Assembly: GCA_035456145.1 (NCBI GenBank)
Contig: DATIDU010000104.1
Coordinates: 1 to 42,733 of the forward strand
Length of the DNA stretch: 42,733 nt
Origin: Gaiellales bacterium
Lineage (GTDB): Bacteria; Actinomycetota; Thermoleophilia; Gaiellales; JAICJC01
Reading direction: 5' to 3'
The position numbers and the translations under genes are program-made. Numbering within the stretch: position 1 is the stretch's first letter; every line of letters starts with the position of its first letter. The notes under the pieces are model-generated. The model searched no databases. It was not told where the DNA came from and worked only from the letters and a program-made list of their open reading frames with translations. Shown here piece by piece: positions 3,864 to 23,553 of the stretch.

Positions 3864-6036
3864 TCAGACGTCGTCCGGCTGGTCGGACATCGCGGCTTGG
3901 CGGTCGGCACCGGCGAGCCAGGCCTCCAGCTCGGCGGCCGGAAGCGGCCGGCTGATGAAGTAGCCCTGGGCGACGTCGCAGCCGAGCCGCGCGAGCCGCT
4001 CCCACGTGTCGGCGCGCTCGACGCCCTCGGCGACCGTGGTGAGGCCCGGCTTGCGCGCCAGGGCGACGGTGGCCTCGACGATGCTGGTGTCGGTCTGGCT
4101 GCCCGTAAGGCCGTTCACGAACGAGCGGTCGATCTTGAGCTCGTCGACCGGCAGCTGCTGGAGGTAGGACAGCGACGAGTATCCGGTGCCAAAGTCGTCG
4201 AGCGAGATCCGCACGCCCATGTCGTGCAGGCGGGCCAGCACGTCGATGGCCCGGCTCGGGTCGAGGACGAGCATCGTCTCGGTGATTTCGAGCCTCAGGG
4301 AGCCCGCCTCGAGGCCGACTCGGTCGAGCTCGGCCGCCACCGAGCCGGGGAGGTCCGGATCGACAAGGTCGCGCACCGACAAGTTGACAGCCACGCAGAG
4401 CTCGATCCCGCGATCCCGCCACTCGCGGCACTGGGACAGGGCGATCCGCAGCACGCGACGCGTCAGCGGACGGATGAGGCCGGTGTGCTCGGCGAGGTGG
4501 ACGAAGTCGTTCCGGGGCGATTATCCCTCGCTCGGGGTGCTGCCAGCGCACGAGCGCCTCGAGGCTTCGGACGCGGCCGTCCCCCAGGCTGGCCTTCGGC
4601 TGGTAGTGGACAATGATCTCGCCGCGGTCGAGCGCGTGGCGCAACTCGCCGACAAGCGCCAGCCGCTCCGTCGAGTGGTCGTCGGTCGAGGGGTCGTAGA
4701 CCTGCATCGCGGTGCGCGTGTCCTTGGCGACGTACATCGCGATGTCCGCACGCTGCAGGAGAGCGTCAACCTGGTCGCCGTGGTCGGGGTAGACGGCGAT
4801 GCCGATGCTGACCCGGATATCGAGCGGGACGTCGTGAAGCACAAGCGGCACGGCGAGCGCCGTCCGGATTCGCGTAGCAAGGTGGGCCGCGGCGGGTTCC
4901 TCCATGACGCGCGGCATGAGGATCGCGAACTCGTCGCCTCCCAGCCGGGCGAGCGTGTCGCTAGCCCGTAGGACGCCGCGAAGACGCGCGGCCACGGCCG
5001 CGATCACGCGGTCGCCCCGGTGGTGCCCAAGGGTGTCGTTGATCTAGCGGAAGCCGTCGATGTCCATGAGCAGGACGGCCGTCCCGACGCCATCCCGGTT
5101 CGCTGCCGCAATCGCCTGTTCGGTACGGTCGCGAAAGAGCATCCGGTTGGGAAGGCCCGTAAGCTCGTCGTGCGTCAGCCGGTACGCGCTGCGCTCGGGT
5201 TCATGTGGACGTATGCAACCCGGCGCCCGCCGACATCGAAGAGCCCTGCCGACCGGCCGGTTCGCGTCACCTTGCGGACCTCGTGCAGATCGGGACCCGC
5301 GAGCGGCGTCGCAACGTCGCGCCCCTGTGCGTTCGTGAACAGAACCACGCCGGTACGGGCATCGACCACCGACATCTCGGCCCCCCGTGCCCGGAGCAAC
5401 GCCTCGCGCCGGAGCGAGTCGACGGGAACTTGAAGCTGGAGGATCACACGACCCCGAGACCGGTCGCCGCGGCCGTTGAGCTCGGGACGACCCACTCGCC
5501 CGTGTCTTCGGCGACATATGGGGCCGACTGATAGACCGTGCCCGGCGGCAGCGTCGTCGACGCCCAGAAGAACCGCTTCAGGGTCTCGTCCTCCGCCGGC
5601 CGCCTGCGTGACGCCCACCCGAGCGGCCGCGCCGTCGCCAACGCGTGCCCAGCGCCGTCGATCGCCTCGGCGGCTCCGGCCAGCCGGCGTCCGTAACCTG
5701 TCCGGAGAGCGACCAGCGCCTCGTCGGCGCGCCGCTGCACGCCGGGATCGGCTCCGGCCGGGCCGGACCGAGCCGCCAGGACACGGCGCCACACCGGGCT
5801 CACGGCCGTCGCCTGGAGGAGCGCCCGAGCGACTGGGTGAGGGCGGCGACCTCGCTGGACGCCGCTGTCTGGAGACGGGCGTCCTGCGTGGCCTGGGACT
5901 GGATCGCCGCTTCACGGACAAGGAGCACCGCCCCGAGCCCGAGCGGAACGAGGCCGGCCGCCATGACCAAGAACGCCCAGCGCGCGTGGTCGCGTAGGAG
6001 CACGCGCAGCGCGTGCCGGTCGAACGGTACGGCCAT
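3864..6036 (-). pseudogene. Decayed TM-sensor(Cache-like, tentative)-GGDEF-EAL c-di-GMP signalling gene
   Basis: Homology is spread over several minus-strand frames. ORF 5800..6036 carries the N-terminal TM helix. ORF 5444..5803 plus the C-terminus of 5175..6704 carry the sensor (SAPYVAEDTGEWVV / ILQLQVPVDSL). ORF 5044..5517 has LTGLPNR and DIDGFR, then an in-frame TAG at 5044-5046. ORF 3571..5007 has INDTLGH, RASD I-site, RLGGDEF and YQPK..EALVRW. ORF 3864..4454 has EITE, DDFGTGYSS, EGVE and QGY. Frame breaks lie near 5805-5835, 5445-5449, 5196-5199 and 4511-4517. Confidence 0.75.
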
Positions 6037-6147: not shown

Positions 6148-6261
6148 TTGACGTGCCGGGACGACGACCAGTCCGCGCCCTTTCCGAAGGCCACCCGGGC
6201 CGCCTGCTCCAAGCCGCCGGCCGAGCTCCGCGATGACGGCCGCCTCGTCGGCCGGCGAGGG
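6148..6261 (-). pseudogene. Relic 3' fragment of a methyltransferase paralog (partial duplication of 6415..6528)
   Basis: Part of ORF 6109..6366 reads PSPADEAAVIAELGRRLGAGGPGGLRKGRGLVVVPARQ, versus LSPAEEWAVIGELGRRLGEGGPDGLRIDRALVVVTARQ at the end of the methyltransferase. The 114 nt align codon by codon with about 80% identity by eye, at a 267-bp offset. Confidence 0.5.
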
Positions 6262-6282
6262 GGCATGCACCGACCCAGGTGG

Positions 6283-6411
6283 GGGGACAGTCCCTGAACC
6301 TTCGGCGACAGGCTTCCGTGACGATGCCGCGACGATGGGCGGACAGGTCGGCCCGCGGTGTGCCACGAAGGCGCGGCGTATCGTCGCGACAACCGTTCAG
6401 GGACTGTCCCC
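6283..6411. repeat. 17-bp perfect inverted repeat (GGGGACAGTCCCTGAAC / GTTCAGGGACTGTCCCC) separated by 95 bp
   Basis: The arms are at 6283..6299 and 6395..6411. The right arm contains the methyltransferase stop codon (TCA on + at 6397-6399). The spacer contains a further pair, CGCGACGAT (6329-6337) / ATCGTCGCG (6380-6388). Confidence 0.7.
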
Positions 6412-7149
6412 GCGTTGGCGGGCGGTGACGACCACCAGGGCGCGGTCGATCCGAAGGCCGTCTGGGCCGCCTTCCCCCAGCCGCCGGCCGAGCTCCCCGA
6501 TGACGGCCCACTCCTCGGCCGGCGAGAGGGTCTCGGCCAGCCGGGTGAAGTGGCCGATGGTCGCGGTGAGGTCGTGCCAGTGCTCGGCCGCCGATTGCGG
6601 CGCGAGCTCGTCGCGCAGCACGACGCCGCCGGCATCGAGACCCGCGCGCCGGTGGGCGTCCACCAGCTCGTCGAGGTCGCCCAGGCGGCCGAAGACGCGG
6701 GCAAACGCCGCCCGCTCGTCTCCCAGCACCGCGGCCACAGCCGCGCGGGCTTCCCCGAACCACGGGTTCTCCTCGACCCGGGCCCAGACCGCGGTCACGA
6801 CCGGGGCGCCGGGCTCGACCACCCGCCCAGCCTCACGAAGGACCGCGACCGGATCGGGAGCGATCATCAGCGCGAGCCTGCTCACGGCCGCGGCGAACCC
6901 GGCGTCGGCGAACGGCAGCGGCTCGGTCATGTCGGCGTGCAGGAACCGGGCGTCGACGCGCGCCTCGGCTGCCCGCCTCCTGGCGGCGTCGAGGCGCGCA
7001 TCGCTCACGTCGATGCCGGTCACGTCGGCTCCCCGCCTGGCCAGCTCGACCGCGAGCCGGCCGCTGCCGCAGCCGACGTCGAGCACCGACGGGGCGCCGG
7101 CGACCGCACCCAGAATCTCCGGGAAGCCCGGCGGGCTTCCGCCGGTCAC
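6397..7149 (-). CDS. Class I SAM-dependent methyltransferase
   Basis: This is the last 250 codons of ORF 6397..7359, with SAM-binding motif VLDVGCGSGRLA and downstream DVTGIDVS. The GTG start at 7149 overlaps the stop of the XdhC-like gene (GTGA). Confidence 0.85.
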   Translation of the reverse strand: MTGGSPPGFPEILGAVAGAPSVLDVGCGSGRLAVELARRGADVTGIDVSDARLDAARRRAAEARVDARFLHADMTEPLPFADAGFAAAVSRLALMIAPDPVAVLREAGRVVEPGAPVVTAVWARVEENPWFGEARAAVAAVLGDERAAFARVFGRLGDLDELVDAHRRAGLDAGGVVLRDELAPQSAAEHWHDLTATIGHFTRLAETLSPAEEWAVIGELGRRLGEGGPDGLRIDRALVVVTARQRGDSP

Positions 7150-8048
7150 CGCGCCTTCACACCGCCAATGTAGCGGGCCGGGTCCGCCTCGAAGCGGGCC
7201 CGGCAGCCGGAGCAGCAGAAGTGGTAGGAGACGCCGTCTACCACTGTCATCTCCCCGACCGGGTCCGTGGGCACACGCATGCCGCACACCGGGTCGACGG
7301 CCTCCGAGACCGCGACGGCGTCGGCACTCCAGGCGTCCGCTGCGGCCGAGTGGCGCCACGCCACGAGCTCGGCCAGCACGGCGACCGCGATCTCCTCCTG
7401 GCGCAGGGGCCCAAGGTCGAGCCCAGCCGGGCTCCGCACCCGCGCCAGCGCCGCGTCGTCCACCCCACGATCGCGCAGGATCGCGAACACCGACGCCGCC
7501 CGCCGCGTGCTGGCGACGAGCCCGACGTAGCCGGCGCCGGAGCCGAGCGCCGCCTGGAGCGTGTCCTCGTCGCCGCGGCCCATCGCCGCGATCACGACCG
7601 CGTCGGGCGCGCCGGCCACCTCGCGGGTCACCCGCCAGCCGACGGCCGGGGCGAGCTGGCAGAGCGCCCGCGCGGCGGGGCTCTCGCCGACGACGGCCAG
7701 GAGCGGGCCGGCGACACAGGGCTCGAGCAGCACCTCGACCGTGCCCTCCGACGCGCAGGACGTCGCCACGACGACGTCGGCGCCGCCCGGGTCGTCGTCG
7801 CCCTCCGGGCCGATCCGCACGAGCCGCGGGTCGCCGGCCGCGAGCGCGCGCAGCGACTCGCGGATCACCACCGGCTCGGAGCAGGCGCCGCCCACCCAGC
7901 CCTCGATCGTGCCGTCGGCTCGGACGAGCGCCCGGTCGCCGGGCCGGGTCGACGCCGGGCGGCGCACGCGGACGACGGTTGCGAGCACATACGGCTCGCC
8001 GTCGGCCGCCAGCCGCCCGGCCAGCACGATGACGTCGTCGGGGGTCAT
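7146..8048 (-). CDS. XdhC/CoxI-family molybdoenzyme maturation protein with C-terminal YHS (TRASH-type) metal-binding domain
   Basis: This is the last 300 codons of ORF 7146..10397. It has an XdhC_CoxI-like N-terminus (YVLATVVRVRRPASTRPGDRALV..GWVGGACSE) and a Rossmann-like XdhC_C part (LLAVVGESPAARAL). The C-terminal motif DPVCGMRV..VSYHFCCSGCRARFEADPARY matches YHS. The ATG at 8048 overlaps the coxL stop (ATGA). Confidence 0.85.
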   Translation of the reverse strand: MTPDDVIVLAGRLAADGEPYVLATVVRVRRPASTRPGDRALVRADGTIEGWVGGACSEPVVIRESLRALAAGDPRLVRIGPEGDDDPGGADVVVATSCASEGTVEVLLEPCVAGPLLAVVGESPAARALCQLAPAVGWRVTREVAGAPDAVVIAAMGRGDEDTLQAALGSGAGYVGLVASTRRAASVFAILRDRGVDDAALARVRSPAGLDLGPLRQEEIAVAVLAELVAWRHSAAADAWSADAVAVSEAVDPVCGMRVPTDPVGEMTVVDGVSYHFCCSGCRARFEADPARYIGGVKAR

Positions 8049-10390
8049 TCCGCCAGTCCGACCTCCGTGAGCGCCTGCCACACCTTCGAGGGCGTGACCG
8101 GCATCTCGAGGTTGCGCACGCCGGCGTGCGCCAGCGCGTCGACCACCGCGTTCACGTAGGCGGCGGGCGAGCCCACCGTGGCCGACTCGCCGACGCCCTT
8201 CGCGCCGAACGGGTGGTGCGGCGAGGGCGTCACCGTCTCGTGCATCTCGAAGTCCGGCGTCTCCCAGGCCGTCGGCAGCAGGTAGTCCATGAAGCTTGAC
8301 CCGATGCAGTTGCCGTCGTCGTCGAACGTGATGAGCTCCATCGCCGCGATGGCGAAGCCCTCCGTCAGGCCGCCGGCGATCTGGCCTTCGACGATCATCG
8401 GGTTGATGCGGACGCCGCAGTCGTCGACCGCGACGACCTTGAGCACCTTCCACTGGCCGGTGCCGCGGTCGATCTCGACGACGGCCGCGTACGTCCCGAA
8501 CGGGAACGTCATGTTCGGCGGGTCGTAGTAGGTGACCCCCTCGAGCCCCGCCTCGAGCCCCTCGGGCAGGTTCGTGTAGGCGGCGAAGGCGCAGTCCTGG
8601 ATCGTCTTCGACTGGTCCGGGCTGCCCTTCACGTGGAAGGAGCCCCGCTCCCACTCGAGGTCGTCCTCGGACGCCTCCAGCAGGTGGGCGGCGATCGTGC
8701 GCGCCTTGTCGCGCAACTTGCGGGCGATCACCGCGGTCGCGGCGCCGCTGACCGGCGTCGACCGGCTGGCGTAGGTGCCGAGCCCGTACGGGGTCGTGTC
8801 GGTGTCGCCCTCCTCCACGAGGACGTCCTCGGCCGGAATGCCGAGCTCCTCGGCCACGATCTGGCCGTAGGTCGTCTCGTGGCCCTGGCCCTGGGACTTG
8901 GTGCCCAGCTTGAGGATCGCCTTCCCGGTCGGATGGATGCGAAGCTCGGCCGAGTCGAACATCCTGAGGCCGGCGATGTCGTAGATCCTCCCCGGCCCGG
9001 CACCGACGACCTCCGTGAACGAGGCGACGCCGATGCCGAGCAGGCGGCCCTCCTTCCGGGCCTCCTCCTGCTCCCGTCGCAGCTCTGCGTACCCGAGCTT
9101 CTCCAGGGCCAGGTCGTGGGCTTTCGTGTAGTCGCCCGAGTCGTACTCGAACCCGGTCGCCGACGTATACGGGAACTGCTCCGGCTTGATGAAGTTCTGG
9201 CGCCGGAAGTCGGCCGGGTCGACGCCGAGCTCGTACGCGGCGGTTTGCACGAGGCGCTCGATCAGATACGAGGCCTCGGTGACGCGGAACGAGCACCGGT
9301 AGGCGACCCCGCCGGGCGCCTTGTTTGTATATGCGCCGACCGCGCTGACATGGGCCGCGGGGATGTCGTAGGAGCCCGTGACGATGTGGAAGAGCCCCGC
9401 CTTGAAGCGGGTCGGCTGGGCGTCGGCGAAGAACGCGCCGTTGTCGGAGAGGAGCGAGGCGCGCAGCCCCGTCATCCGCCCGTCCTTGATCGCCAGCTCG
9501 CCGTGCATGTGGTAGTCGCGCGCGAAGCCGGTCGAGATCAGGTTGCCGAACCGGTCCTCGATCCACTTCACCGGCCGGCCGATCAGGAGCGACGCCGCGG
9601 CTGCAACGACGTAGCCGGGGTAGATCGGCACCTTGTTTCCGAAGCCGCCGCCGATGTCGGGTGAGACGATCCGGATCTGGTGCTCGGGGAGGCCGGCGAC
9701 GATGGCGAAGAGCGTCCGGTGAGCGTGCGGCGCCTGCGACGTCATGTAGATCGTCGCCTTGCCGGTGGCCGGGTTGACGTCGGCCACGCAGCCGCAGCAC
9801 TCCAGGGGTGCCGGATGGCAGCGGGGGTAGAAGGTATCGAGCGAGACCACCCGGTCGGCCTCGGCGAAGGCGCGGTCGGTGGCCTCCTTGTCGCCCGTCT
9901 CCCAGTCGTAGATGTGGTTTCCGGTCTGCCCCTCCTTGTCGTCGCGGATGACCGGAGCACCCTCGGCGAGCGCCTGCTGGGGCGAGGTGACCGCGGGCAG
10001 CATCTCGTAGTCGACGTCGATCAGATCCAGCGCGTCGCGGGCGATGTAGGCGTTCTCGGCGACGACGGCCGCGACCTCCTGGCCCTGGAAGCGCACCTTG
10101 TCCGTGGCGAGCACCGCCTGGGTGTCGCCCGAGAGCGTGGGCATCCACGCCAGGTTGTGCTGCGCCATGAGGTCGCCGGTGACGACGGCGACGACGCCCG
10201 GAAGCGCCGCGGCGCGGCTGGTGTCGATCGACTTGATCCGGGCATGCGCGACGGGGCTGCGCAGGAGCTCGAGGTGGAGCATGTTGGGCAGCACGATGTC
10301 GTCGACGTAGTTGCCGCGGCCGCGGATGAAGCGGGCGTCCTCGATGCGCTTCACCGAGTGCCCGAGGCCGCGTGGCTCGGTGGTGGCCAT
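8045..10390 (-). CDS. coxL: Aerobic carbon monoxide dehydrogenase large (molybdopterin) subunit, form I
   Basis: 781 codons. The ATG at 10390 is preceded by GAGG. The form I active-site signature VAYRCSFR is encoded at 9284..9307. The sequence is xanthine-dehydrogenase-family throughout. Confidence 0.95.
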   Translation of the reverse strand: MATTEPRGLGHSVKRIEDARFIRGRGNYVDDIVLPNMLHLELLRSPVAHARIKSIDTSRAAALPGVVAVVTGDLMAQHNLAWMPTLSGDTQAVLATDKVRFQGQEVAAVVAENAYIARDALDLIDVDYEMLPAVTSPQQALAEGAPVIRDDKEGQTGNHIYDWETGDKEATDRAFAEADRVVSLDTFYPRCHPAPLECCGCVADVNPATGKATIYMTSQAPHAHRTLFAIVAGLPEHQIRIVSPDIGGGFGNKVPIYPGYVVAAAASLLIGRPVKWIEDRFGNLISTGFARDYHMHGELAIKDGRMTGLRASLLSDNGAFFADAQPTRFKAGLFHIVTGSYDIPAAHVSAVGAYTNKAPGGVAYRCSFRVTEASYLIERLVQTAAYELGVDPADFRRQNFIKPEQFPYTSATGFEYDSGDYTKAHDLALEKLGYAELRREQEEARKEGRLLGIGVASFTEVVGAGPGRIYDIAGLRMFDSAELRIHPTGKAILKLGTKSQGQGHETTYGQIVAEELGIPAEDVLVEEGDTDTTPYGLGTYASRSTPVSGAATAVIARKLRDKARTIAAHLLEASEDDLEWERGSFHVKGSPDQSKTIQDCAFAAYTNLPEGLEAGLEGVTYYDPPNMTFPFGTYAAVVEIDRGTGQWKVLKVVAVDDCGVRINPMIVEGQIAGGLTEGFAIAAMELITFDDDGNCIGSSFMDYLLPTAWETPDFEMHETVTPSPHHPFGAKGVGESATVGSPAAYVNAVVDALAHAGVRNLEMPVTPSKVWQALTEVGLAE

Positions 10391-10902
10391 CACGCACCTC
10401 CCTCTGCCAGCGTGGCGGCCGCGTGCTTCACGGCCTTCACGATGTTCTGGTAGCCCGTGCACCGGCACACGTTGCCGGAGAGGGCCCAGCGGATCTCCTC
10501 GTCGGTCGGATTCGGGTTCTCGGCGAGGAACGCCACCGACGTCAGCATCATCCCCGGCGTGCAGAACCCGCACTGGAGCCCGTGCTCCTGGTGGAACCCG
10601 TCCTGGATGGCGTGCAGCTGGGCGCCCTGGGCGAGCCCCTCGACCGTCGTGATCGCACGGCCGTCCGCCTGCACCGCGAACATCGTGCACGACTTGGTCG
10701 GCACGCCGTCGACGAGGACGGTGCAGGCGCCGCAGCTTGTCGTGTCGCAGCCGATGTGGGTGCCGGTCAGGCCCAGCGTCTGGCGCAGGAAGTGAGCAAG
10801 CAGGAGCCGCGTCTCGACCTGCGCCGAGCGCTCCTGGCCGTTCACGGTGACGGTCACCTGCGAGGTGTGCGTGGAATCTCCGACGGTGGTGGCCATCGTC
10901 AT
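10390..10902 (-). CDS. coxS: CO dehydrogenase small (2Fe-2S) subunit
   Basis: This is the C-terminal 170 aa of ORF 10390..11445, with the two [2Fe-2S] Cys motifs ([11 protein letters not shown]; CGFCTPG..CRCTGY). The ATG at 10902 overlaps the coxM stop (ATGA). An alternative ATG at 10896 sits 6 nt after GGAGGG. The stop overlaps the coxL ATG (TGATG). Confidence 0.93.
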
Positions 10903-11783
10903 CCCTCCTGTCCGGCCTGGGCCTCGGCGACCGCCTGGCGCAGCCCGCGCTCGGTGTAGACGCGTACGACGCTTCGCTTGAAGTCCACAGTGCCGCGCAC
11001 GTCGTCGCGCGGCTCGGCGGCCTCCGCTGCCAGCTTCGCCGCCTCCCGGATCGCATCGTCGTCCGGCGCGCGGCCTGCCAGCGCCTCCTCGGCTGCCCGG
11101 GCGCGCATGTTGGTGGGGCCGACGCCGGTCAGGGCGATCCCCGCCCTCCCGATCGTCCCATTCGAGAGCGACACCTGAACGGCAACGCCGACCGTGGCGA
11201 AGTCGCCGATCTTGCGCTCGAGCTTCAGGTACGTGCCAGACGCGCGCGGCCCCGGGTCGGGCACGCGCACCTCGGTGATCAGCTCGTTCGGCTCGAGCGT
11301 CGTCATGAACGGCCCCGTGAGCAGATCGTCGATCGAGCTGGTGCGGCTCGCGCCGCCCGGGCCTCGGATCGTGGCCTCCGCCCCGGCCGCGAGGAGCACC
11401 GATGCCCAGTCGCCCTGCGGGTCGGCGTGCGCGAGCGAGCCACACAGCGTCCCGTGGTTTCTCACGATCGGATCCGAGATCTGGGGCGCCGCCCTGCCCA
11501 GCGCCGCGTAGCGTCCCTTCAGGTGCTCCGACCGCTCGCAGTCCCGGTGGCGGACGCGGGCTCCGATCACGACGCCGTCGTCGCCGGTCGCGATGGTGTC
11601 GCCGAGGTCGGCGACGTGGTTGATGTCGACGAGCACCGCCGGGGCCGCGAAGCGCAGTTTCATGAGCGGGATCAGGCTCTGGCCGCCGGCCAGCACCTTC
11701 CCGTCATCACCATGTGCGTCGAGGTGTGCGAAGGCGTCGTCGAGCGTCGTGGGTGCCACGTACTCGAAGCTCGCGGGGTACAC
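10899..11783 (-). CDS. coxM: CO dehydrogenase medium (FAD-binding) subunit
   Basis: This is the last 294 codons of ORF 10899..11978, with the FAD-binding motif [13 protein letters not shown] and a CO-dehydrogenase flavoprotein C-terminal region. The GTG at 11783 is preceded by GGAGGGAGGG at 5 nt. Confidence 0.9.
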
Positions 11784-11883: not shown

Positions 11884-12112
11884 GGTGTCTCCAATTCCAG
11901 TCGAAAACGTGAATCGGAGCCCACCGGATGTCGGAGCCGACGCGGAGCGTGGGCCGGTGTGGACGGACATGACCACATGACATTCCGATCCGCCTACTGC
12001 ATTCCGAGGCCGATGGGTGCTCACCGTCGTCGGCGTTCCTCGTGGACCGTGATTGAGCGGCGTCTGGGCGCGCCGGTCAATCGCCGCCCGGTTTCGGCCG
12101 ATAACGCAGGGC

Positions 12113-14335
12113 ATGGGATTGCGCTTCGGGCGGCGACACTTCGCCATGCGCGCCCGCGTCCGCCGCGGGCTGTCCGGCGTTGCCCGTCGTAGCCGGCTCG
12201 CCTGGACCGGCGAGGAGCAGCTGCGGCTCGCGCTGGCCGCGGCCCGGATGGGGACGTTCGAATGGGACCTGCGCAGCCACCGGGGTACGATGTCGCCGGA
12301 GCTGGAGGCGATCCACGGCCTCGCGCCGGGCGAGTTCGACGGCAGCGCGGAGATGCTCATGGAGCTCGTGCACCCCGACGACCGCGACGTCCTGCTCTCG
12401 AGCTTTGCCGAGGCGGCCGCAGGCGGCGGAACCTACGAATCGGTGTTCCGGATCGTCCTGCCGAGCGGCGAGGTGCGGTGGCGGACAGCCGTCGCGACCA
12501 TCCTGACCGGCGCCGACGGCATGCCGTCGCGCATCGTCGGGGTCGGGCAGGACGTGACCGACCGGCGCAGGGCGGAGGAGACCCTCGCCGAGGCGCAGGC
12601 CCGGTACCGGCGGATGGTCGAGCAGCTGCCGCTCGTGACGTACGTCGAGAGCCTCGACGCCGAGAGCGCGCTCTACATCAGCCCGCAGATCGAGGAGCTC
12701 TGCGGTTACACCGCGGAGGAGTGGATGGCCGACCCCCAGTTCTTCGGCAAGGTGCTCCACCCCGACGACCGCGACCATGTGCTGGGCGAGTTCGCCAACA
12801 CCCACATGACGGGCGACATGTACGACGGCGAGTACCGGGTGGTCGCCAGGGACGGCCGGATCGTCTGGGTGCACGACGTCGCGGTCAGGGTGCGCGACGA
12901 CGACGGCAACCCGCTCTACTCGCAGGGCTACATGGTCGACGTGACCGCACGCCACGCGGCAGAGCAGGCGCTCGCCGAGAGCCGGGCGCAGCTCGAGCAG
13001 CGGATGCGCGAGATCGAGCATCAGGCCCTGCACGACGCGCTCACCGACCTGCCGAACCGCACGCTCTTCCACGACCGTGTCGAGCAGGCGCTTCGCACCG
13101 CGCGCCGCACGGGCGGCGGTGTGTGCGTCATGCTGATCGACCTCGACCGGTTCAAGGAGGTGAACGACACGCTCGGCCACGCGAGCGGCGACGTCCTCCT
13201 CCAGGAGGTGGCCCGCCGGCTGCGGGCGCCGGTGCGCGAGTGCGACACGGTCGCACGCCTCGGCGGCGATGAGTTCGGCGTGCTGGCGGCCGGCATCGCG
13301 ACGCCGGCCGACGCGATCGTCCTCGCCGAGAAGCTGCGCGAGGCGCTGACGGAGCCGATCGCCGTCGCCGGCCTGGCGCTTGAGGTCGAGTCGAGCATCG
13401 GGATCGCGCTCGCGCCGGATCACGGACTCGACGTCGAAACGCTCATCCGCCACGCCGACGTCGCGATGTACGTCAGCAAGGCCACGCACAACCCCGCCCT
13501 GTACTCGCCCGAGACCGACCACCATTCGCGTGTGCGCCTCACGCTGGTGGCCGACCTGCGCCGCGCGCTGGAGCGCGAGGAGCTCGTCGTCTACTACCAG
13601 CCGCAGGCCTGCGCGACGACCGGCGCCGTCCGCACCATGGAGGCGCTGGTGCGCTGGGAGCATCCCGTCCACGGCCTGCTCACGCCTGACCAGTTCGTGC
13701 CGGTGGCCGAGCAGACCGGGCTCATCCGGCCGCTCACCCTGTACATGCTGGACGCCGCCCTGCGCCAGTGCACGGAGTGGCGACGCTCCGGCTACGACGT
13801 CGCCGTCGCCGTGAACGTCACCGGGCGCGATCTCCTGGACCTGCGCTTCCCCGAGCAGGTCGCGGCGGCGATCGCGCGCGCCGGAGTCGCAGCGGAGGCG
13901 CTCGAGCTCGAGATCACCGAGAGCACGATCATGGCCGACGCCGCCCGCGCCCGCTCGGTACTCGTGCAGCTCTCCGAGCTTGGGGTGCGCCTCGCGATCG
14001 ACGACTTCGGCAGCGGCCACTCGTCGCTCGGCTATCTGAAGCGGCTGCCGATCGACGTCTTGAAGATCGACCGCTCCTTCGTCATGAACATGGCCGACGG
14101 GAGCGACGACGTGGTGATCGTCCGCTCGACGATCGACCTCGGCCACAACCTCGGCCTCCAGGTGGTCGCCGAGGGCGTCGAGACCCAGGAGGCGCTGGCG
14201 CAGCTCATGGAATTCGGCTGCGACTCGGTGCAGGGCTACTTCCTGAGCCGGCCCCAGCCGACCGATGCCGTCGAGTGGATCGTCCGCCGCCTGGCACGCC
14301 GCCTCCCGCCCGGCGACGTCTCGGCCACCGGCTGA
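12113..14335 (+). CDS. PAS-PAS-GGDEF-EAL bifunctional c-di-GMP signalling protein
   Basis: ORF 12053..14335. It has two PAS-like units (MGTFEWDL.., VHPDDRD; LYISPQIEELCGYTAEEW, LHPDDRD). The GGDEF domain has LTDLPNR, DLDRFKEVNDTLGH, an RECD I-site and RLGGDEF. The EAL domain has YQPQ..EALVRW, EITE, DDFGSGHSS, EGVE and QGY. The start is uncertain (TTG 12053, ATG 12113 or ATG 12146). Confidence 0.9.
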   Translation: MGLRFGRRHFAMRARVRRGLSGVARRSRLAWTGEEQLRLALAAARMGTFEWDLRSHRGTMSPELEAIHGLAPGEFDGSAEMLMELVHPDDRDVLLSSFAEAAAGGGTYESVFRIVLPSGEVRWRTAVATILTGADGMPSRIVGVGQDVTDRRRAEETLAEAQARYRRMVEQLPLVTYVESLDAESALYISPQIEELCGYTAEEWMADPQFFGKVLHPDDRDHVLGEFANTHMTGDMYDGEYRVVARDGRIVWVHDVAVRVRDDDGNPLYSQGYMVDVTARHAAEQALAESRAQLEQRMREIEHQALHDALTDLPNRTLFHDRVEQALRTARRTGGGVCVMLIDLDRFKEVNDTLGHASGDVLLQEVARRLRAPVRECDTVARLGGDEFGVLAAGIATPADAIVLAEKLREALTEPIAVAGLALEVESSIGIALAPDHGLDVETLIRHADVAMYVSKATHNPALYSPETDHHSRVRLTLVADLRRALEREELVVYYQPQACATTGAVRTMEALVRWEHPVHGLLTPDQFVPVAEQTGLIRPLTLYMLDAALRQCTEWRRSGYDVAVAVNVTGRDLLDLRFPEQVAAAIARAGVAAEALELEITESTIMADAARARSVLVQLSELGVRLAIDDFGSGHSSLGYLKRLPIDVLKIDRSFVMNMADGSDDVVIVRSTIDLGHNLGLQVVAEGVETQEALAQLMEFGCDSVQGYFLSRPQPTDAVEWIVRRLARRLPPGDVSATG

Positions 14336-14361: not shown

Positions 14362-14392
14362 TGAGCGGGTTCCCCACCCTTAGGAGGACCCG

Positions 14393-14686
14393 ATGATCAC
14401 GCTCACCCTTGAGGCGACCGACGCGATCCGCGATCTCGTGGGGAGCGCCGAGCTTCCGGCGACCGGCGGGCTGCGGCTCGACACGAACGATCCGGATCTG
14501 AACAGCGCGCCACCGAGCCTGGCCCTCACGCTCGTCGAGTCCCCCGCCGCGGGCGACGAGGTGATCGACGAGGGCGGCGTTCACGTGTACGTGTCACGGC
14601 AGGCCGCGCCGCTCCTCGACGGCAAGGAGATCGACGCCCGCACCGAGGCGGGCGGCGTCACCTTCCTCGTGAACGAACAGCGCTAA
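14393..14686 (+). CDS. HesB/IscA-like small protein (no conserved cysteines)
   Basis: 97-aa ORF with a strong RBS (TTAGGAGGACCCG ATG) and high GC3. The sequence pattern (ITLTLEATDAIRDL.., GGLRL.., VYVSRQAAPLLDGKEID) resembles the Fe-S biosynthesis HesB fold but lacks Cys residues. Confidence 0.65.
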   Translation: MITLTLEATDAIRDLVGSAELPATGGLRLDTNDPDLNSAPPSLALTLVESPAAGDEVIDEGGVHVYVSRQAAPLLDGKEIDARTEAGGVTFLVNEQR

Positions 14687-14742: not shown

Positions 14743-16707
14743 CTACGGCGCGCCGTCCAGCGACTCGGCCAGAAGCGTGGCCACGTCCGCCACGCGCAGG
14801 TCGCGGCCTGACGTGCGAACGCCGTCGTCGAGCATGATCGTGCAGTAGGGGCAGGCGACCGCCAGCGTGCCGGCGCCGGTCTCGGCCGCCTCGCGCACAC
14901 GCTCCTCGTTGATCCCCCGCCCCCGCTCCTCCATCCACATGTGCGCGCCGCCCGCGCCGCAGCAGAAGGTCTTCTTGCCGCTTCGGGCCATCTCGACCGG
15001 CGTCCCGACCGCCGCCACCAGCTCGCGCGGCTCGGCGGCGACGTCGTTGTGGCGGGCCAGGTAGCAGGAGTCGTGGTAGGTGATCGGCTTCTCGCCGCCG
15101 CCGGGGGTGATCCGGCCCTCGCGCACCAGCTCGGCCAGGAGCTCCGAGTGGTGCACCACCTCGTAGCGTCCGCCGAAGTCCGGGTACTCGTTTGAGAGCG
15201 TGTTGAAGCAGTGCGGGCACGACGTGACGATCTTGCCGGCGCCGGCCTCGTTCAGGGTCTCGACGTTCTGCTCGGCGAACGCCTGGAAGACGTACTCGTT
15301 CCCCATCCGCCGGGCCGGGTCGCCTGTGCATGCCTCGCGCGGGCCGAGGATGGCGAAGTCGACTCCGGCGGCCTGGAGCAGCTTGGCGGTCGACTCGGCC
15401 GACGCCTTGGCGCGCTCGTCGAAGGACGCCGCGCAGCCCACCCAGTAGAGCACCTCCGGCGCCGGGTCGCCCGGCTCCAGCACGCGCACTCCGAGGCCCT
15501 CGGCCCAGGCCGCCCGCTCCGACTGGGCCTTGCCCCACGGGTTGGACGAGCGCTCGACGTCGCGCAGCATCGGGTCGGCCTCTGCCGGGAAGCGGGCCTC
15601 GACCATCACCAGGTGGCGACGCAGGTCGACGATGTGATCGATGTGCTCGATCGACACCGGGCAGACCTGGACACACGCCCCGCACGTGACGCAGTCCCAG
15701 ACGACGTCGTCCGTCACCGCGTTCGGCACGAGCGGGGTCGCCTCCCCGCCCGCCGCCGCGGCCGGCCCCTCGGCGAAGAGCTGGTCGCGCAGGCCCATGA
15801 TGAGGAGCTTCGGCGAGAGCGCCTTGCCGGTCGCCCACGCCGGGCAGGCGTCCTGGCAGCGGCCGCACTCCGTGCACGAGAAGGTGTCGATCACCTGCTT
15901 CCAGGTCATGTCGGAGACCGTGCCCGAGCCGAGCCGCATGTCCTCCTCGGGTCCCTCCTCGTCGAAGCGCAGAGATTCCAGCCGTCCTCGCGCATGCGTG
16001 CGCCCGAAGAAGACGTTCACGACGGCCGTCGCGATGTGCAGGTGCTTGGAGTGCGGCAGGTACGCGAGGAACCCGATGATGATGAGGACGTGCGCCCAGA
16101 CGAAGACGCGCTCGGCGTCCTCGGTGCGCGGCCCGCCGCCGAACAGGTTCGAGAGCGCCTTCGAGACCGGCGACCAGCCGGCCGGCCACTCGTTCAGGCC
16201 GAGCGCGATCCGGGTGGCGTGCCAGAGGAGAAGCGTCGTCACGATGCCCGCGATCAGCGCCAGGATCAGGTCGGCCTCGCCGATGTGGCTGCCCTCGAAC
16301 CGGGCCGGCCGCTGCACCTTGCGGATCACGAACGCCGTCACGACGCCAGCGAGGACAAGCACGGCGAAGACGTCCACAAGGAACGCGAACCAGCCCTGGC
16401 TCCCGAGCCACGGGATCGTCGAGTCCTTCGAGACCACCGCGATCAGCGCCATCACGATGGTCGGGAAGAGCACCAGGAAGCCCCAGAAGATGAAGGCGTG
16501 CATCAGCCCGGGCACGAGCCGCTGGAGCAGCTTCCGCTGCCCGAGCGCGATCACGACCTCGTTTCGCACCCGCGCCCCCAGCTCGCCCGAGCGGTCGGTG
16601 GGGCGAGCGGCGCGAACCAGGCGGACGAGCACCACCGCCCGCCGCGCGAACAGCCCTCCGCCGACCGCCAGGACCCCGAGCAGGACGAGGAGGGCGAGCG
16701 AGTCTAT
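14743..16707 (-). CDS. Membrane-bound (Fe-S)-binding oxidoreductase, EtfD/heterodisulfide-reductase-like (ETF:quinone link)
   Basis: This is the C-terminal ~654 codons of ORF 14743..17838. It has N-terminal TM helices, two 4Fe-4S motifs (CTECGRCQDACP and CVTCGACVQVCP) and cysteine-rich CCG-type regions (CPHCFN, CCGAGG, CPYC). The start is unresolved: homology begins at ATA 16707-16705, overlapping the etfA TAG. The next in-frame canonical starts are GTG 16881 (inside etfA) or a GTG about 24 codons downstream. Confidence 0.85.
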   Translation of the reverse strand: MDSLALLVLLGVLAVGGGLFARRAVVLVRLVRAARPTDRSGELGARVRNEVVIALGQRKLLQRLVPGLMHAFIFWGFLVLFPTIVMALIAVVSKDSTIPWLGSQGWFAFLVDVFAVLVLAGVVTAFVIRKVQRPARFEGSHIGEADLILALIAGIVTTLLLWHATRIALGLNEWPAGWSPVSKALSNLFGGGPRTEDAERVFVWAHVLIIIGFLAYLPHSKHLHIATAVVNVFFGRTHARGRLESLRFDEEGPEEDMRLGSGTVSDMTWKQVIDTFSCTECGRCQDACPAWATGKALSPKLLIMGLRDQLFAEGPAAAAGGEATPLVPNAVTDDVVWDCVTCGACVQVCPVSIEHIDHIVDLRRHLVMVEARFPAEADPMLRDVERSSNPWGKAQSERAAWAEGLGVRVLEPGDPAPEVLYWVGCAASFDERAKASAESTAKLLQAAGVDFAILGPREACTGDPARRMGNEYVFQAFAEQNVETLNEAGAGKIVTSCPHCFNTLSNEYPDFGGRYEVVHHSELLAELVREGRITPGGGEKPITYHDSCYLARHNDVAAEPRELVAAVGTPVEMARSGKKTFCCGAGGAHMWMEERGRGINEERVREAAETGAGTLAVACPYCTIMLDDGVRTSGRDLRVADVATLLAESLDGAP

Positions 16708-17684
16708 CCGCCCCTCGCCTTCAGGGCGGCCACGATCGCCGGCACGACCTCGTGCAGGTCGCCGATCACGGCGTAGTCGGCGTTCGCGATCATCGGAGCG
16801 TCGGGGTCGGTGTTGATGGCGAGGATGCGCTTGGCACCCTTGCAGCCGGCCATGTGCTGGGTGGCGCCGCTGATCCCGCACGGGATGTAGATCTCGGGAG
16901 CGATCTTGGTGCCGGTCTGGCCGACCTGGTCGGTGTGCGGGCGCCAGCCGGCGATCGTGACCGCCCGCGAGCAGCCGACCGCGCCGCCCAGGAGCCCCGC
17001 CAGCTCCTCGATGGCCGCGAACCCCTCGGCCGAGCCCGCGCCGCGGCCGCCGCTCACGACCACCTTTGCGTCGGCGAGCGAGATCCCGCCGCCGGTGTCG
17101 GTCTGGGCCCGCTCGACGACCCGGGCCGCCAGGTCGGCGTCGGCCAGCTCGGGCGTGAACGCCGCGACCTCGGTCTGGGCCGGCGCCGCTGCCGGCGTCG
17201 CCTCGACCGCGTGCGCGGCGACGGTCAGGAGCTTCGTCGCGCCGTGCAGGCGCGCCTCCTCTAGCAGGCTCCCGCCCCAGCGGACCCGGGTGACCGCAGC
17301 CGGGTCGCCGGGCGCCGCGGAGATGCAGTTGGCGGCGAACGGCAGATCGGCGATCGCCGCCGCGTGCGCCATCACCTCGGCGGCGCGTTCGCTCCCGGGC
17401 CCGACGACGGCGGCCGGCGCGAGCCGGCCGGCCAGCCCGGCGATCGTCCGTCCCCACGCCTGCGGGGCGAACTGCGAAAGGCCGTCGTGCTCGGCCACGT
17501 GGGCCTTCGCGACCCCGAGCTCGCCGAGACCGGCGGCCGCGTCGGCCGCGCCCGGGCCGATCAGGATGGCCTCGAGGCCGACTCCGGCCGCCTCGGCGTA
17601 CCCGCGGGCCAGCGTCGCAGCCTGGCGGGAGAGGTCGTCGGCGGCGGCGCCGTCGTGCTCGACCAGGACGAGGACCGAGCTCAA
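16704..17684 (-). CDS. etfA: Electron transfer flavoprotein alpha subunit
   Basis: 326-aa ORF, FixB/EtfA-like throughout (VLVLVEHDG..; C-terminal FAD-binding part PEIYIPCGISGATQHMAGC). The TTG start overlaps the etfB stop (TTGA). Confidence 0.92.
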   Translation of the reverse strand: MSSVLVLVEHDGAAADDLSRQAATLARGYAEAAGVGLEAILIGPGAADAAAGLGELGVAKAHVAEHDGLSQFAPQAWGRTIAGLAGRLAPAAVVGPGSERAAEVMAHAAAIADLPFAANCISAAPGDPAAVTRVRWGGSLLEEARLHGATKLLTVAAHAVEATPAAAPAQTEVAAFTPELADADLAARVVERAQTDTGGGISLADAKVVVSGGRGAGSAEGFAAIEELAGLLGGAVGCSRAVTIAGWRPHTDQVGQTGTKIAPEIYIPCGISGATQHMAGCKGAKRILAINTDPDAPMIANADYAVIGDLHEVVPAIVAALKARGG

Positions 17685-18451
17685 CCCGCCACTCCGATCC
17701 GCTCCAGGAGCTCGACCACGGCAGGGGCGGCCTCCGGGCCGCGGCCCAGCACCTCGGTCTGCGACCCCTCGTCGGCCGGTACCACGAGCCGCACCTTCTC
17801 GACGCCCTGACTGCCGCGCTCGGGCGTGCGCGCCTCAAGCGGCTTCTTCTTGGCGCGCAGGCGACCCGGGACCGACGGGTAGCGGGGCAGGTTCAGGCCC
17901 TCCTTCACGGTCACGACGGCCGGGAGCGTCACCCGGTAGACGTCGCGACCGCCCGGCACCTCCTGCTCGAGGCGCAGGCCGCCGTCCTCGAGCGCCACCG
18001 CCTTCACGCCCGTCACGCACGGCCGCCCGAGCGCGTGGGCCACCCGGATCCCGACCTGGAAGCCGCCGGCGTCGGCGGACTCGTTGCCGAAGAAGACGAT
18101 GTCGTACTCCGTGCCCGCGGCGCGCTCGGCCTCGATCGCCTCAACGATGGCCCGCGCCGTCGCCTGGCCGTCGAACTCGTCGCCGGCGACCAGGTGGATC
18201 GCCCGGTCGATGCCGAGCGCCATGCAGTCGCGCAGCTGCTCCTCGGCCTCGGCCGGGCCCAGCGCGAGGACGGTCGACGAGCCGCCGTTGGCCTCGATCA
18301 GGCGCACGGCCTCCTCCACTCCGCACTCCTCGTGCGGGCTGATCGTGAAGCCCAGGTGGCGGGTCTCGATCGCCTGCTCGTCGGCGGTGAGGACGATCCG
18401 GCCGCCGGTCATCGGGACGCGCTTCACGCAGCAGAGGATGTTGAGCGCCAC
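17681..18451 (-). CDS. etfB: Electron transfer flavoprotein beta subunit
   Basis: 256-aa ORF, FixA/EtfB-like (NILCCVKRVP.., GNESADAGGFQVG). The GTG start shares one base with the upstream TAG stop (TAGTG). Confidence 0.92.
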   Translation of the reverse strand: MALNILCCVKRVPMTGGRIVLTADEQAIETRHLGFTISPHEECGVEEAVRLIEANGGSSTVLALGPAEAEEQLRDCMALGIDRAIHLVAGDEFDGQATARAIVEAIEAERAAGTEYDIVFFGNESADAGGFQVGIRVAHALGRPCVTGVKAVALEDGGLRLEQEVPGGRDVYRVTLPAVVTVKEGLNLPRYPSVPGRLRAKKKPLEARTPERGSQGVEKVRLVVPADEGSQTEVLGRGPEAAPAVVELLERIGVAG

Positions 18452-20970
18452 TAGGAGCGGATCCTCGTGTTCTCGGGGTCGAAGATCGGGGTCGGCCCGG
18501 CGATGTCGACGGTGACGGGGTAGCGCTCGCCCAGGTAGAGCACCGAGAGCTCGGTGCCCACGACCGCCTGCTCCGGCGGCAGGTAGGCCATGAGGATGTG
18601 CTTTCCGATCGACGGCCCGGCGCCGGCGCTCGTCACGTACGACCGCCGCCCCTTCGCGTCGACGAGTGGCCCACCGGCGCGGGTCTGGATCGGCTCGCGG
18701 CCGAGCATGTAGCGCTTCGCGCCGCTCTGCGACGTGTGGTCATCCACCGTGAGCGTGCACAGGATCGCCGCGGGGTCCTCCTCGCGGTGGCGCATATGCG
18801 CGTCGCGGCCGACGAAGTCCTCGTCCTTCACCTTCGGGCCGGACATGCCCGCCTCGACCACGTTGTACTCGGTCTCGAGCTCGAAGCCGTAGGCCCGGTA
18901 GCACTTCTCGAGCCGGCCGGTGGTGCCGTAGACGCCGATCCCAACGGGCACGACGCCGTGGGCGCGGCCGGCCTCCCAGAGGATGTCCCACAGCCGCGCG
19001 CCCTGCTCCATCGGAACGTACAGCTCCCAGCCCAGGTCGCCGACGTAGGAAATCCGCGAGGCCAGGACGCGCAGCGTGTCGATCTCGATGTCGCGGCACG
19101 ACGCGAACCGGAAGCCCTCATGCGAGACGTCGTCGGAGGTGACCGACGCCAGGACGTCGCGGGCCCGCGGCCCCCACAGGCCGAGCGTCGTCCACCCGGT
19201 GGTGACATCGGAGAGCTGCGCGGTGCCGTCGGCCGGCAGGTGGTCGGTGAACCACTTCTTGTCGGCCGCGCCGTGGGCGCCGCCGGTGACGACGCGGAAG
19301 AGCTCCTCGCCGAGCCGCATGATCGTGAGGTCGGCCTTGAAGCCGCCGCCGGGCGAGAGGATCGGCGTGTAGACGACCCGCCCGATCGGGACATCCATCT
19401 GGCGCACCGACACGCCCTGCACGGCGTGAAGCGCGCCCGGCCCGGCGATATCGAAGATTGCGAACGCGCTCAGGTCGACCATGCCGGCCCGGTCGCGCAT
19501 CGCCAGGTGCTCGGCGTTGATGATGGGCGACCACCAGCGCGAGTCCCACTCCGCCTCCCGGCGCGTCACCCGGTCGCCGTACGCGTCGAGCAGCGCCGAG
19601 TTCGACTCGTACCAGTGCGGTCGCTCCCACCCGGCCGCCTCGAAGAAGACCGCGCCCAGCTCGCGCTCGCGGGCATGGAACGGGGGCAGGCGGACGTCGC
19701 GGTCAGACGCCCACTGCTCCCCGGGGTGGACGACGCCGTAGGTCTTGTTGAAGCCCTCGGCGGCACGCGCGCGCACGTGCGCGCGCGTCTTCTGGTGATC
19801 CCAGAACCGGGCGATGTCGGACGAGTGCAGGTCGATCTCCGACTCGCCGTGGGTCATCCACTCGGCGACGGCGGCGCCGATCCCGGGCCCCTCCTTCACC
19901 CAGACGGCGGCGCACGACCACAGCCCCTTCACCTCGGGCGTCTCGCCGAGGAGCGGCAGGCCGTCGGGCGTCAGCGAGAGCAGGCCGTTGATGGCGTACT
20001 TCACGCCGACGGACTCGTCGCCCACGATCTCGGGCATGAGCTCGAGCGCGTCCTCCATCTGCGGATCGAAGTCGGCCTGCGTGAAGGGCAGCTCGGTCGG
20101 CGACAGCGACGCCTGCTCGATCGAGGGGATCTCGTCGGGGTCGTGCAGGATCGCGCGATGGGCGTAGGAGCCGATCTCCAGGCCCGAGCCGTCCTGGCGC
20201 TCGTACATGTTGGTGTCCATGTCGCGCACGATCGGGTACTCGATGTGCGACTTCGACTCGGCGAAGTGCGGCACCGGCCCGACGTCGATCATCTGGTGGA
20301 CGGCCGGCGTGAGCGGAATCGTGGCGCCCGCCATCCGGGCGATGCGCGGGCTCCAGACGCCGCAGGCGATGACCACGACCTCGGCCTCGATGTCGCCGCG
20401 CGTCGTCCGCACCCGCCGCACCCGGCCGCGCTCGACGTCGATCCCGAGCACCTCGGTGAGCGGCGAGACCGTGAGCGCGCCCGCCTCCTGGGCCCGCTCG
20501 CGCATGATCGTGCCCGCCCGCAGCGAGTCGACCACGCCGACGCCAGGGGAGTAGAAGCCGCCGATGATCACCGACTCGTCGATGAACGGGACGAGCTCCT
20601 TGATCTCGGCCGGCGTCACCATCGACACCGGCTCGACGCCCCACGAGGCGGCCGAGGACATCCGTCGCTGGAGCTCCTGCATCCGCTCCTCCGTGCGTGC
20701 GACCTCGATGCCGCCGCTCTCGGTGAACACGCCCAGGTCCTTGTACTGGCGCACGCTCTCGAGGGTGAGCGCGGTCATTTCCTTGGAGTGGTCGACCGGG
20801 AAGATGAAGTTCGAGGCGTGGCCCGTGGACCCGCCGGGGTTGGGGAACGGCCCCTTGTCGAGCAGCACCAGGTCGCTCCAGCCCTGCCGCCACAGGTGGT
20901 GGGCCATGCTGTTTCCGACAATCCCTGCGCCGATGACGACGGCGCGGGCGCTTCCCGGCAGCGTGCTCAT
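18451..20970 (-). CDS. Dimethylglycine/sarcosine dehydrogenase-like protein (FAD oxidoreductase fused to GcvT-type folate-binding aminomethyltransferase domain)
   Basis: 839-aa ORF. The N-terminus has VVIGAGIVGNS (GxGxxG, DAO family). The C-terminal half is GcvT-like (SYVGDLGWELY..). The architecture matches ~830-aa dimethylglycine oxidase/dehydrogenase enzymes. RBS GAAGGAG lies upstream of ATG 20970. Confidence 0.88.
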   Translation of the reverse strand: MSTLPGSARAVVIGAGIVGNSMAHHLWRQGWSDLVLLDKGPFPNPGGSTGHASNFIFPVDHSKEMTALTLESVRQYKDLGVFTESGGIEVARTEERMQELQRRMSSAASWGVEPVSMVTPAEIKELVPFIDESVIIGGFYSPGVGVVDSLRAGTIMRERAQEAGALTVSPLTEVLGIDVERGRVRRVRTTRGDIEAEVVVIACGVWSPRIARMAGATIPLTPAVHQMIDVGPVPHFAESKSHIEYPIVRDMDTNMYERQDGSGLEIGSYAHRAILHDPDEIPSIEQASLSPTELPFTQADFDPQMEDALELMPEIVGDESVGVKYAINGLLSLTPDGLPLLGETPEVKGLWSCAAVWVKEGPGIGAAVAEWMTHGESEIDLHSSDIARFWDHQKTRAHVRARAAEGFNKTYGVVHPGEQWASDRDVRLPPFHARERELGAVFFEAAGWERPHWYESNSALLDAYGDRVTRREAEWDSRWWSPIINAEHLAMRDRAGMVDLSAFAIFDIAGPGALHAVQGVSVRQMDVPIGRVVYTPILSPGGGFKADLTIMRLGEELFRVVTGGAHGAADKKWFTDHLPADGTAQLSDVTTGWTTLGLWGPRARDVLASVTSDDVSHEGFRFASCRDIEIDTLRVLASRISYVGDLGWELYVPMEQGARLWDILWEAGRAHGVVPVGIGVYGTTGRLEKCYRAYGFELETEYNVVEAGMSGPKVKDEDFVGRDAHMRHREEDPAAILCTLTVDDHTSQSGAKRYMLGREPIQTRAGGPLVDAKGRRSYVTSAGAGPSIGKHILMAYLPPEQAVVGTELSVLYLGERYPVTVDIAGPTPIFDPENTRIRS

Positions 20971-21013
20971 GGGGTCTCCTTCGTTGCCACGGCCTCGCTC
21001 ATCTGGTAGACAA

Positions 21014-21025: not shown

Positions 21026-21038
21026 AGCCTCCCGGCGT

Positions 21039-23528: not shown

Positions 23529-23553
23529 GTCACACGAGTAGCGGATTGCGCGT

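Follow-up and report, generated by a model that had tools for sequence, protein, structure and literature searches.

The window analysed here, a stretch of 42,733 nt, covers positions 1 to 42,733 (forward strand) of contig DATIDU010000104.1 from a Gaiellales bacterium (GCA_035456145.1). On its minus strand, at 6397-11783, it carries five genes in the order coxM-coxS-coxL-coxF(YHS)-methyltransferase, an apparent operon for an aerobic Mo-Cu carbon monoxide dehydrogenase (CODH), in which the gene following coxL encodes an XdhC-family maturation protein with a C-terminal YHS/TRASH domain (Table 1). Start and stop codons overlap along the whole operon. Read from the sequence, the junctions are, in order, ATGA (coxM stop and coxS start, 10899-10902), TGATG (coxS stop and coxL start), ATGA (coxL stop and coxF start, 8045-8048) and GTGA (coxF stop and the GTG start of the methyltransferase, 7146-7149). 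coxM probably starts at the GTG at 11783, with GGAGGGAGGG just ahead of it. A scan of the operon region for sigma-70 promoters and terminators found nothing usable.

Table 1. Genes of the cox operon and the C-terminal domain of its maturation factor.
Feature	Position	Strand	Basis
coxM, FAD-binding medium subunit	10899..11783	-	Pfam FAD_binding_5 and CO_deh_flav_C
coxS, [2Fe-2S] small subunit	10390..10902	-	Pfam Fer2_2 and Fer2
coxL, form I Mo-Cu CO dehydrogenase large subunit, 781 aa	8045..10390	-	TIGR02416 and AYRCSFR
coxF-type XdhC-family maturation factor, 300 aa	7146..8048	-	Pfam, BLASTP, hidden Markov model, AlphaFold2/Foldseek
C-terminal YHS/TRASH domain of the CoxF-like protein, residues 250-300 and stop codon	7146..7301	-	Pfam YHS
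Class I S-adenosylmethionine-dependent methyltransferase, 250 aa	6397..7149	-	Pfam Methyltransf_25 and Methyltransf_11

The large subunit is of the copper-containing type. CoxL scores 1213.6 bits against the TIGR02416 equivalog model (cutoff 991.15), and its active-site loop, which reads GGVAYRCSFRVTE, contains AYRCSFR and agrees with the AYXCSFR pattern of form I enzymes. The cysteine of this loop is the copper ligand in CoxL. Translational coupling of the maturation gene to a form I coxL, as proposed in a first-pass annotation of the sequence, is borne out by the ATGA overlap.

Three Pfam domains score above their cutoffs in the 300-aa protein: XdhC_CoxI (residues 14-80, 73.5 bits), the Rossmann-type XdhC_C (residues 117-228, 77.2 bits) and YHS (PF04945, residues 251-295, E = 6.4e-10, 39.3 bits against a gathering cutoff of 30.3). 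The TRASH_HVO_1752_C model was also passed (32.8 bits, cutoff 27), and the fusion of a YHS/TRASH domain to an XdhC-family maturation protein, already called in the first-pass annotation, holds. Residues 250-300, AVDPVCGMRVPTDPVGEMTVVDGVSYHFCCSGCRARFEADPARYIGGVKAR followed by the stop codon, include four putative metal ligands, D252, C255, C278 and C282, spaced as D-x2-C-x22-C-x3-C, the ligand pattern known from YHS/TRASH domains. Alignments of 16 and 56 homologues showed D252, P253, C255, G256, M257, F277, C278 and C282 to be invariant and C279 to be variable. The match is far beyond chance, since the three-domain architecture is shared by 120 of the 120 best homologues in a collection of 5.8 billion proteins (61-95% identity, mostly from soil metagenomes and metagenome-assembled genomes, MAGs, of Gaiellaceae). 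An AlphaFold2 model (mean predicted local distance difference test, pLDDT, 84.9) consists of a confident XdhC body, a helical linker and a small beta-rich C-terminal domain (pLDDT ~75-90), with ~15-20 residues of linker between the body and the YHS/TRASH module. The best Foldseek neighbours of the body in the PDB are 2WE8/2WE7 (E = 1.6e-12 for 2WE8) and 3ON5.

Related domains occur in proteins of other kinds. In a class III adenylyl cyclase of Mycobacterium phlei, a YHS domain confers Cu-specific activation, and its ligands D178, C181, C204 and C208 have the same spacing as D252, C255, C278 and C282 (PMC4626032). YHS is also one of the module types at the N-termini of Cu P-type ATPases (PMC4626032), and both the cyclase domain and the ATPase modules belong to the same Pfam family (YHS/TRASH) as the window tail. 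However, the domain regulates a cyclase in M. phlei and sits on a transporter in the Cu ATPases, whereas in the window it is fused to a cofactor-maturation chaperone.

The XdhC body is of the CoxF type. CoxF and CoxI, both encoded on pHCG3 of Oligotropha carboxidovorans, are XdhC-family proteins, and the first-pass annotation had taken the window protein for a CoxI-like one. Its assignment to CoxF instead follows from the agreement of BLASTP, HMM scores for the body (hidden Markov model) and position in the coxF slot. Aligned with O. carboxidovorans CoxF, the protein gives 32% identity over 265 aa (E = 1e-30), against only 87 aa aligned with CoxI (E = 3e-6). A family HMM built from residues 1-235, i.e., from the XdhC body with no contribution from the YHS part, scored 164-230 bits for coxF-slot proteins (O. 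carboxidovorans CoxF and those of Paraburkholderia, Deinococcus, Thermomicrobium roseum, Nonomuraea and AP019797.1) and 49-92 bits for CoxI-like paralogues. The window protein is also far under the cutoffs of the NCBIfam XdhC models (TIGR02964, 22 against 162; NF045664, 94 against 350). On pBN2 of Paraburkholderia aromaticivorans (L083), the orthologue lies in the slot after coxD-coxE, in the order coxM-S-L-G-D-E-[XdhC-YHS]-mocA-x-coxI. Similarly, the orthologue in AP019797.1 (L166) occupies the coxF slot after coxD-coxE, and the order in Deinococcus sp. AJ005 is coxMSL-G-x-[XdhC-YHS]-D-E. The 300-aa protein is, as predicted from these comparisons, an orthologue of CoxF; filing it as a CoxI-like or generic XdhC chaperone of the molybdenum cofactor (Moco) was rejected by BLASTP, HMM scores and gene order. 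CoxI and XdhC proper (O. carboxidovorans CoxI, Rhodobacter capsulatus-type XdhC, 2WE7/2WE8 and 3ON5) have the same two-domain XdhC fold, but the CoxI-like paralogues stand in a far weaker sequence relation to the window protein, and, while they share loci with the YHS protein, they never carry the tail. The assignment corrects a naming found in genome papers and annotation, where the CoxF-YHS gene is called coxI or “XdhC family protein”: the latter is the NCBI annotation, and in one paper a putative counterpart, the gene behind coxL in Thermogemmatispora, appears under the name coxI (coxMSLIG).

A link between CoxF and copper had already been reported for one organism. Pelzmann et al. described CoxF as an XdhC-motif protein, reported that loss of CoxF or CoxE yields Cu-free CODH in O. 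carboxidovorans, and proposed that CoxF escorts copper to the CODH active site (PMC4240915). In the Oligotropha model, CoxF together with CoxE puts Cu(I) on the sulfurated Mo centre of folded apo-CODH (PMC4240915). The genetic evidence for this role of CoxF in Cu insertion comes from O. carboxidovorans only. The CoxF of that species (WP_013913733.1) resembles the window protein in having an XdhC_CoxI plus XdhC_C body, encoded in a form I cox cluster, and scores 164 bits on the family HMM; however, it ends ~15 residues past the Rossmann domain and has no YHS domain. Its suspected Cu motif, M107CPSHGTM, is not conserved in the window protein, which reads T-S-C98-A-S-E-G-T-V and keeps only the Cys, Ser and Gly, and its phytase-like RHGQRQS (signature RHGXRXP) is reduced to R232-H233-S (RHSAAAD). 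The MCPSHGTM Cu site and the RHGXRXP signature are hypotheses for one protein and not established as features that define the family. The idea that tail-less CoxFs retain an internal M-C-x-x-H-x-x-M motif was dropped, as the tail-less Nonomuraea CoxF lacks the motif too. Gene order differs as well: coxF follows coxD-coxE in O. carboxidovorans and directly follows coxL in the window, from which coxD and coxE are absent.

The fused gene is widespread and closely tied to form I coxL. A scan led by the window family, with one genome per GTDB species, returned at least 557 genomes with a relative, and the 80 best loci taken from it belong to Gaiellales, Solirubrobacterales, Acidimicrobiia, Pseudonocardiaceae, Streptosporangiaceae, Dormibacterota, Armatimonadota and others. 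A further 80 loci, every one matched through the YHS part, came from a scan led by the Paraburkholderia protein and represent Burkholderiaceae, Gammaproteobacteria, Acidobacteriota, many Chloroflexota classes, SAR324, Cytophagia, Gemmatimonadaceae and Methylomirabilota. Where 2.6 kb or more of upstream sequence was available, with coxL sought within ~10 kb, an AYRCSFR coxL was present in 62/65 and 63/67 loci, respectively, that is, in 125/132 or ~95%. It lay directly upstream of the fusion gene in 58 of the window-led and 26 of the Paraburkholderia-led loci. The co-occurrence with AYRCSFR-type coxL that the first-pass annotation proposed to check is thus found at nearly all loci. The seven remaining loci include one with SYRCSFR (L121) and two on contigs that end within coxE or coxG-coxD-coxE (L100, L105).

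The tail is also specific within the XdhC family. Across the 160 CoxF-anchored loci, a YHS-type tail was found on 0/56 CoxI-like paralogues. A control sample drawn by way of CoxE, without selection for CoxF or YHS, comprised 154 actinobacterial loci and had the tail on at least 44/47 complete CoxF-type genes, the rest looking like artefacts of open-reading-frame calling, and on 0/75 other XdhC-like genes. Equal frequency of the fusion beside non-CODH enzymes, which the first-pass annotation had named as the outcome that would speak against it, was not what these samples showed; linkage to form I is near-exclusive. A search of 72,556 plasmids (E < 1e-10) matched 20 records, of which 19 are exactly the 19 plasmids with a form I CoxL, and five matches (T. 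roseum, P. aromaticivorans, two Caballeronia and Deinococcus) include the YHS part. After clustering at 50%, 374 representatives matched at E < 1e-30, and the Cys motif was present in 131 of the best 149, with fragments making up most of the remainder; since ranking favours full-length matches, this fraction is skewed upward. Cultured carriers include T. roseum DSM 5159, Trebonia kvetii, Kineosporia sp., Nocardioides mangrovi, Amycolatopsis sp., several Paraburkholderia and Saccharospirillum impatiens. CoxF with a metal-binding module spans at least ten phylum-level lineages and is the sole XdhC paralogue to carry one, and a predicted C-terminal YHS/TRASH module is carried by CoxF in most of the non-alphaproteobacterial carboxydovores sampled.

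Variants of the tail bear on what it may bind. HMA is the second of the two N-terminal module types of Cu P-type ATPases. In the closed genome AP019797.1 (GCA_009936275.1), one protein (P0236, L166 8001-9038) has a CoxF-type body (230 bits) followed, instead of YHS, by an HMA domain with GMSCAHC (40.9 bits, cutoff 24.8); its context is coxM-S-L(AYRCSFR)-G-D-E-F-mocA. P0236 thus resembles the YHS-bearing CoxFs in body, slot and possession of a C-terminal metal-binding appendage, but the appendage is a ferredoxin-like HMA domain with an MxCxxC motif. Of the evidence available, this interchange of HMA and YHS at one position points most clearly to Cu(I). Other CoxF relatives end in Cys/His-rich tails (GGGCCHHHE, HSCCQGS, GHSCH). 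Three 50%-cluster representatives of 533-565 aa (P0146, P0184, P0194) combine a MobA/MocA-like NTP transferase (cytidylyltransferase) with XdhC_CoxI, XdhC_C and YHS, and these triple fusions are predicted to join synthesis of the molybdopterin cytosine dinucleotide (MCD) cofactor to the CoxF-YHS unit.

It is almost certain, on these data, that the window protein is a CoxF orthologue whose YHS/TRASH module is genuine and conserved, that the protein is co-translated with a form I CODH, and that the module is specific to CoxF and to clusters for the Cu-type CODH. A copper-handling role for the tail is plausible, and is strengthened because HMA (GMSCAHC) replaces YHS at the same position in one lineage. 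Restriction of the tail to CoxF, its linkage to AYRCSFR and the HMA swap together provide independent comparative-genomic support for CoxF as a copper-handling factor. The reading that we favour, with a probability of about 0.6, is that Cu(I) is bound at the Asp-Cys3 site and carried to the sulfurated Mo centre by the tethered module, with the XdhC body docked on CoxL. The site would take up Cu(I) from a chaperone or from the pool in the cytoplasm, the XdhC body would dock on CoxL, and the tethered module would then pass Cu(I) on to the Mo-SH/Cys388-equivalent site, so that the [CuSMoO2] cluster is complete. Copper as the metal, the direction of transfer and whether the window organism needs CoxD/CoxE are matters of inference in this scheme.

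Several observations weigh against delivery of Cu(I) by the module. YHS/TRASH domains are not copper-specific, as the TRASH domain of ribosomal protein L24e binds Cd/Zn-type ions through Cys4, and the YHS region of the toluene-4-monooxygenase hydroxylase is metal-free in crystals (PMC4626032). The solved YHS-like segments nearest to the window tail also belong to hydroxylases of this kind, those of phenol and toluene monooxygenases. The copy on p380k of Deinococcus sp. AJ005 (L084 8971-10032) has lost two of the four ligand positions, with a tail that is YHS-like but has D for the first Cys and T for the second ligand Cys (SPVDGEEI...YYFTCANC); this degenerate copy sits in a cluster that also holds coxG, coxD and coxE. 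Four loci (L006, L046, L080, L106) carry the fusion without coxL in the available flank and are unexplained exceptions. Moreover, 14 of the plasmid CoxFs are tail-less (alphaproteobacteria including O. carboxidovorans, Nonomuraea and Natronorubrum), and the presence of tail-less CoxFs in proven carboxydotrophs means that the YHS module is dispensable in principle.

Some of these points would suit a tail that is a structural Zn module, treble-clef-like, serving as a docking or dimerisation handle (e.g., for CoxL, CoxE or the membrane) with no part in copper trafficking. TRASH domains and their treble-clef relatives often bind Zn or Cd structurally, copper has no part in the di-iron monooxygenase hydroxylases that contain the closest solved segments, and the Deinococcus copy retains the domain but not all ligands. 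However, a Zn handle does not account for a tail found solely on the paralogue that accompanies the one Cu-containing enzyme of the family, nor for its replacement by an HMA domain with MxCxxC in one lineage; the three Cys and the Asp are, moreover, invariant in the actinobacterial family. We consider this alternative unlikely. A sensor function, in which the tail would switch the CoxF chaperone on when Cu is available and would not carry the copper of the enzyme, takes its appeal from the only biochemically studied YHS domain in the literature searched, a Cu-dependent switch on a fused catalytic domain (PMC4626032). It is quite improbable for CoxF, which has no known enzymatic output to switch and whose model already requires a Cu-escorting site, and the HMA domains that substitute for YHS in one lineage are typically carriers. 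Finally, relay of sulfur (persulfide) or binding of Mo/Moco by the Cys-rich tail, aiding sulfuration in operons without coxD, is highly improbable, since the fusion is equally common beside coxD, Asp-Cys3 has the geometry of a metal site and the HMA substitution speaks for a metal ion, even though XdhC-family proteins handle sulfurated Moco (PMC4240915), no coxD was found in the window and the triple fusions, through their MocA-like cytidylyltransferase, connect the protein with MCD synthesis.

Homologues of CoxD, CoxE and CoxG were not found within the 42.7-kb window (tblastn, E <= 0.01; Pfam scans). The first-pass annotation had listed coxD, coxE and coxF as absent from the cluster; this stands for coxD and coxE as far as the window extends, but not for coxF, which is the fused gene itself. 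The annotation further proposed the fusion as a compact copper-delivery route in place of coxD/E/F, a proposal that fails in general, as coxD and coxE lie within 9-10 kb at 13/36 fully flanked window-led loci and at 27/38 Paraburkholderia-led ones. The fusion occupies the coxF slot beside coxD and coxE in Paraburkholderia, Deinococcus, Dormibacterota and many Gaiellaceae, and replacement of coxD/E by YHS was rejected as a general rule. Among Gaiellaceae (L015, L016, L022, L023, L031, L034, L039 and others), coxE-coxD is divergent from coxMSL-coxF~YHS-coxI-like-coxG, and these form I clusters are directly followed by a form II cluster, coxS-coxL (AYRGAGR) and then coxM, which is absent from the window.

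The window belongs to a Gaiellales group with a minimal layout, together with L003 (90% protein identity), L064 (91%), L004, L005, L008, L010, L018, L024 and others. Among the best 80 of 125 relatives in a scan for CoxE, homologues lay on other contigs of the MAGs behind L015, L016, L033 and L037, whereas none came from the minimal-cluster MAGs (L003, L004, L005, L008, L010, L018, L024, L026, L027, L029, L030, L064), a negative result that, with the best 80 of 125 covered, is weak at most. A cultured counterpart is T. roseum DSM 5159, which oxidises CO (PMC2615216). Its megaplasmid protein WP_143714800.1 has the same XdhC plus YHS architecture (39.5% identity, E = 1e-68) and the order coxM-coxS-coxL-xdhC(YHS) without adjacent coxD/E, as in the window, but is 336 aa long and has an insertion in the Rossmann domain. 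According to Islam et al., accessory genes of the T. roseum CODH, including coxG and coxE, form a separate operon (PMC6776052). The locus tags given for this CODH differ between reports: trd_1206-1215 (Islam et al., PMC6776052) and trd_A0564-6 on the megaplasmid (Wu et al.). In Nonomuraea gerenzanensis (L165; NZ_LT559118.1, 11.85 Mb, among the plasmid records and hardly annotated), the gene for a tail-less CoxF comes after a form I coxL, and coxD/E do not occur within 9 kb, so minimal clusters also exist without any C-terminal metal module. That in a minimal operon of the Gaiellales type, with no coxD/E/G within 42 kb, completion of the [CuSMoO2] site would require only the YHS-bearing CoxF is a tentative and rather doubtful proposition. 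If it were true, a cassette of four genes would suffice for active CO dehydrogenase of the Mo-Cu type, and the tethered YHS (or HMA) module would donate Cu(I) directly.

These findings bear on the route by which copper gets to the buried Mo-S-Cu site in aerobic CO dehydrogenase. No literature linking YHS/TRASH or HMA with XdhC, CoxF or CODH was found in open-access text; the XdhC plus YHS architecture is itself visible in precomputed Pfam annotations, and CoxF was already known as a proposed Cu supplier. The proteins of T. roseum and Paraburkholderia, or the 300-aa window protein, would be better experimental subjects than Oligotropha CoxF, and the operon defines a candidate minimal cassette for heterologous production of an enzyme that consumes atmospheric CO.

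The remainder of the operon and its surroundings have features of their own. The methyltransferase gene, last in the apparent operon, has a homologue after coxF only in the closest relatives (L003, L004 and L064) and not at the other 157 loci. Its 3′ end is copied just downstream of the gene by a 116-nt direct repeat (6148-6263 and 6415-6530, 81% identity), and a perfect 17-nt inverted repeat (6283-6299, GGGGACAGTCCCTGAAC; 6395-6411, GTTCAGGGACTGTCCCC) lies between the repeat copies. Together, they look like a scar of partial duplication or rearrangement at the operon end.

Genes for cyclic di-GMP signalling are unusually dense in the window. They encode an EAL-only protein (3864-4520, minus strand), a PAS-GGDEF-EAL protein directly upstream of coxM and divergent from it (12053-14335, plus strand), and two more GGDEF proteins (23542-24558 and 26739-28184, both plus strand). 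A cluster at 14743-21021 on the minus strand encodes a CCG/4Fe-4S (heterodisulfide-reductase-like) protein, the alpha and beta subunits of an electron-transfer flavoprotein, and a dimethylglycine-dehydrogenase-like DAO/GCV_T fusion. A HesB-like Fe-S assembly protein is encoded at 14384-14686, and a GntR/FCD regulator, divergent from the cluster, at 21018-21698.

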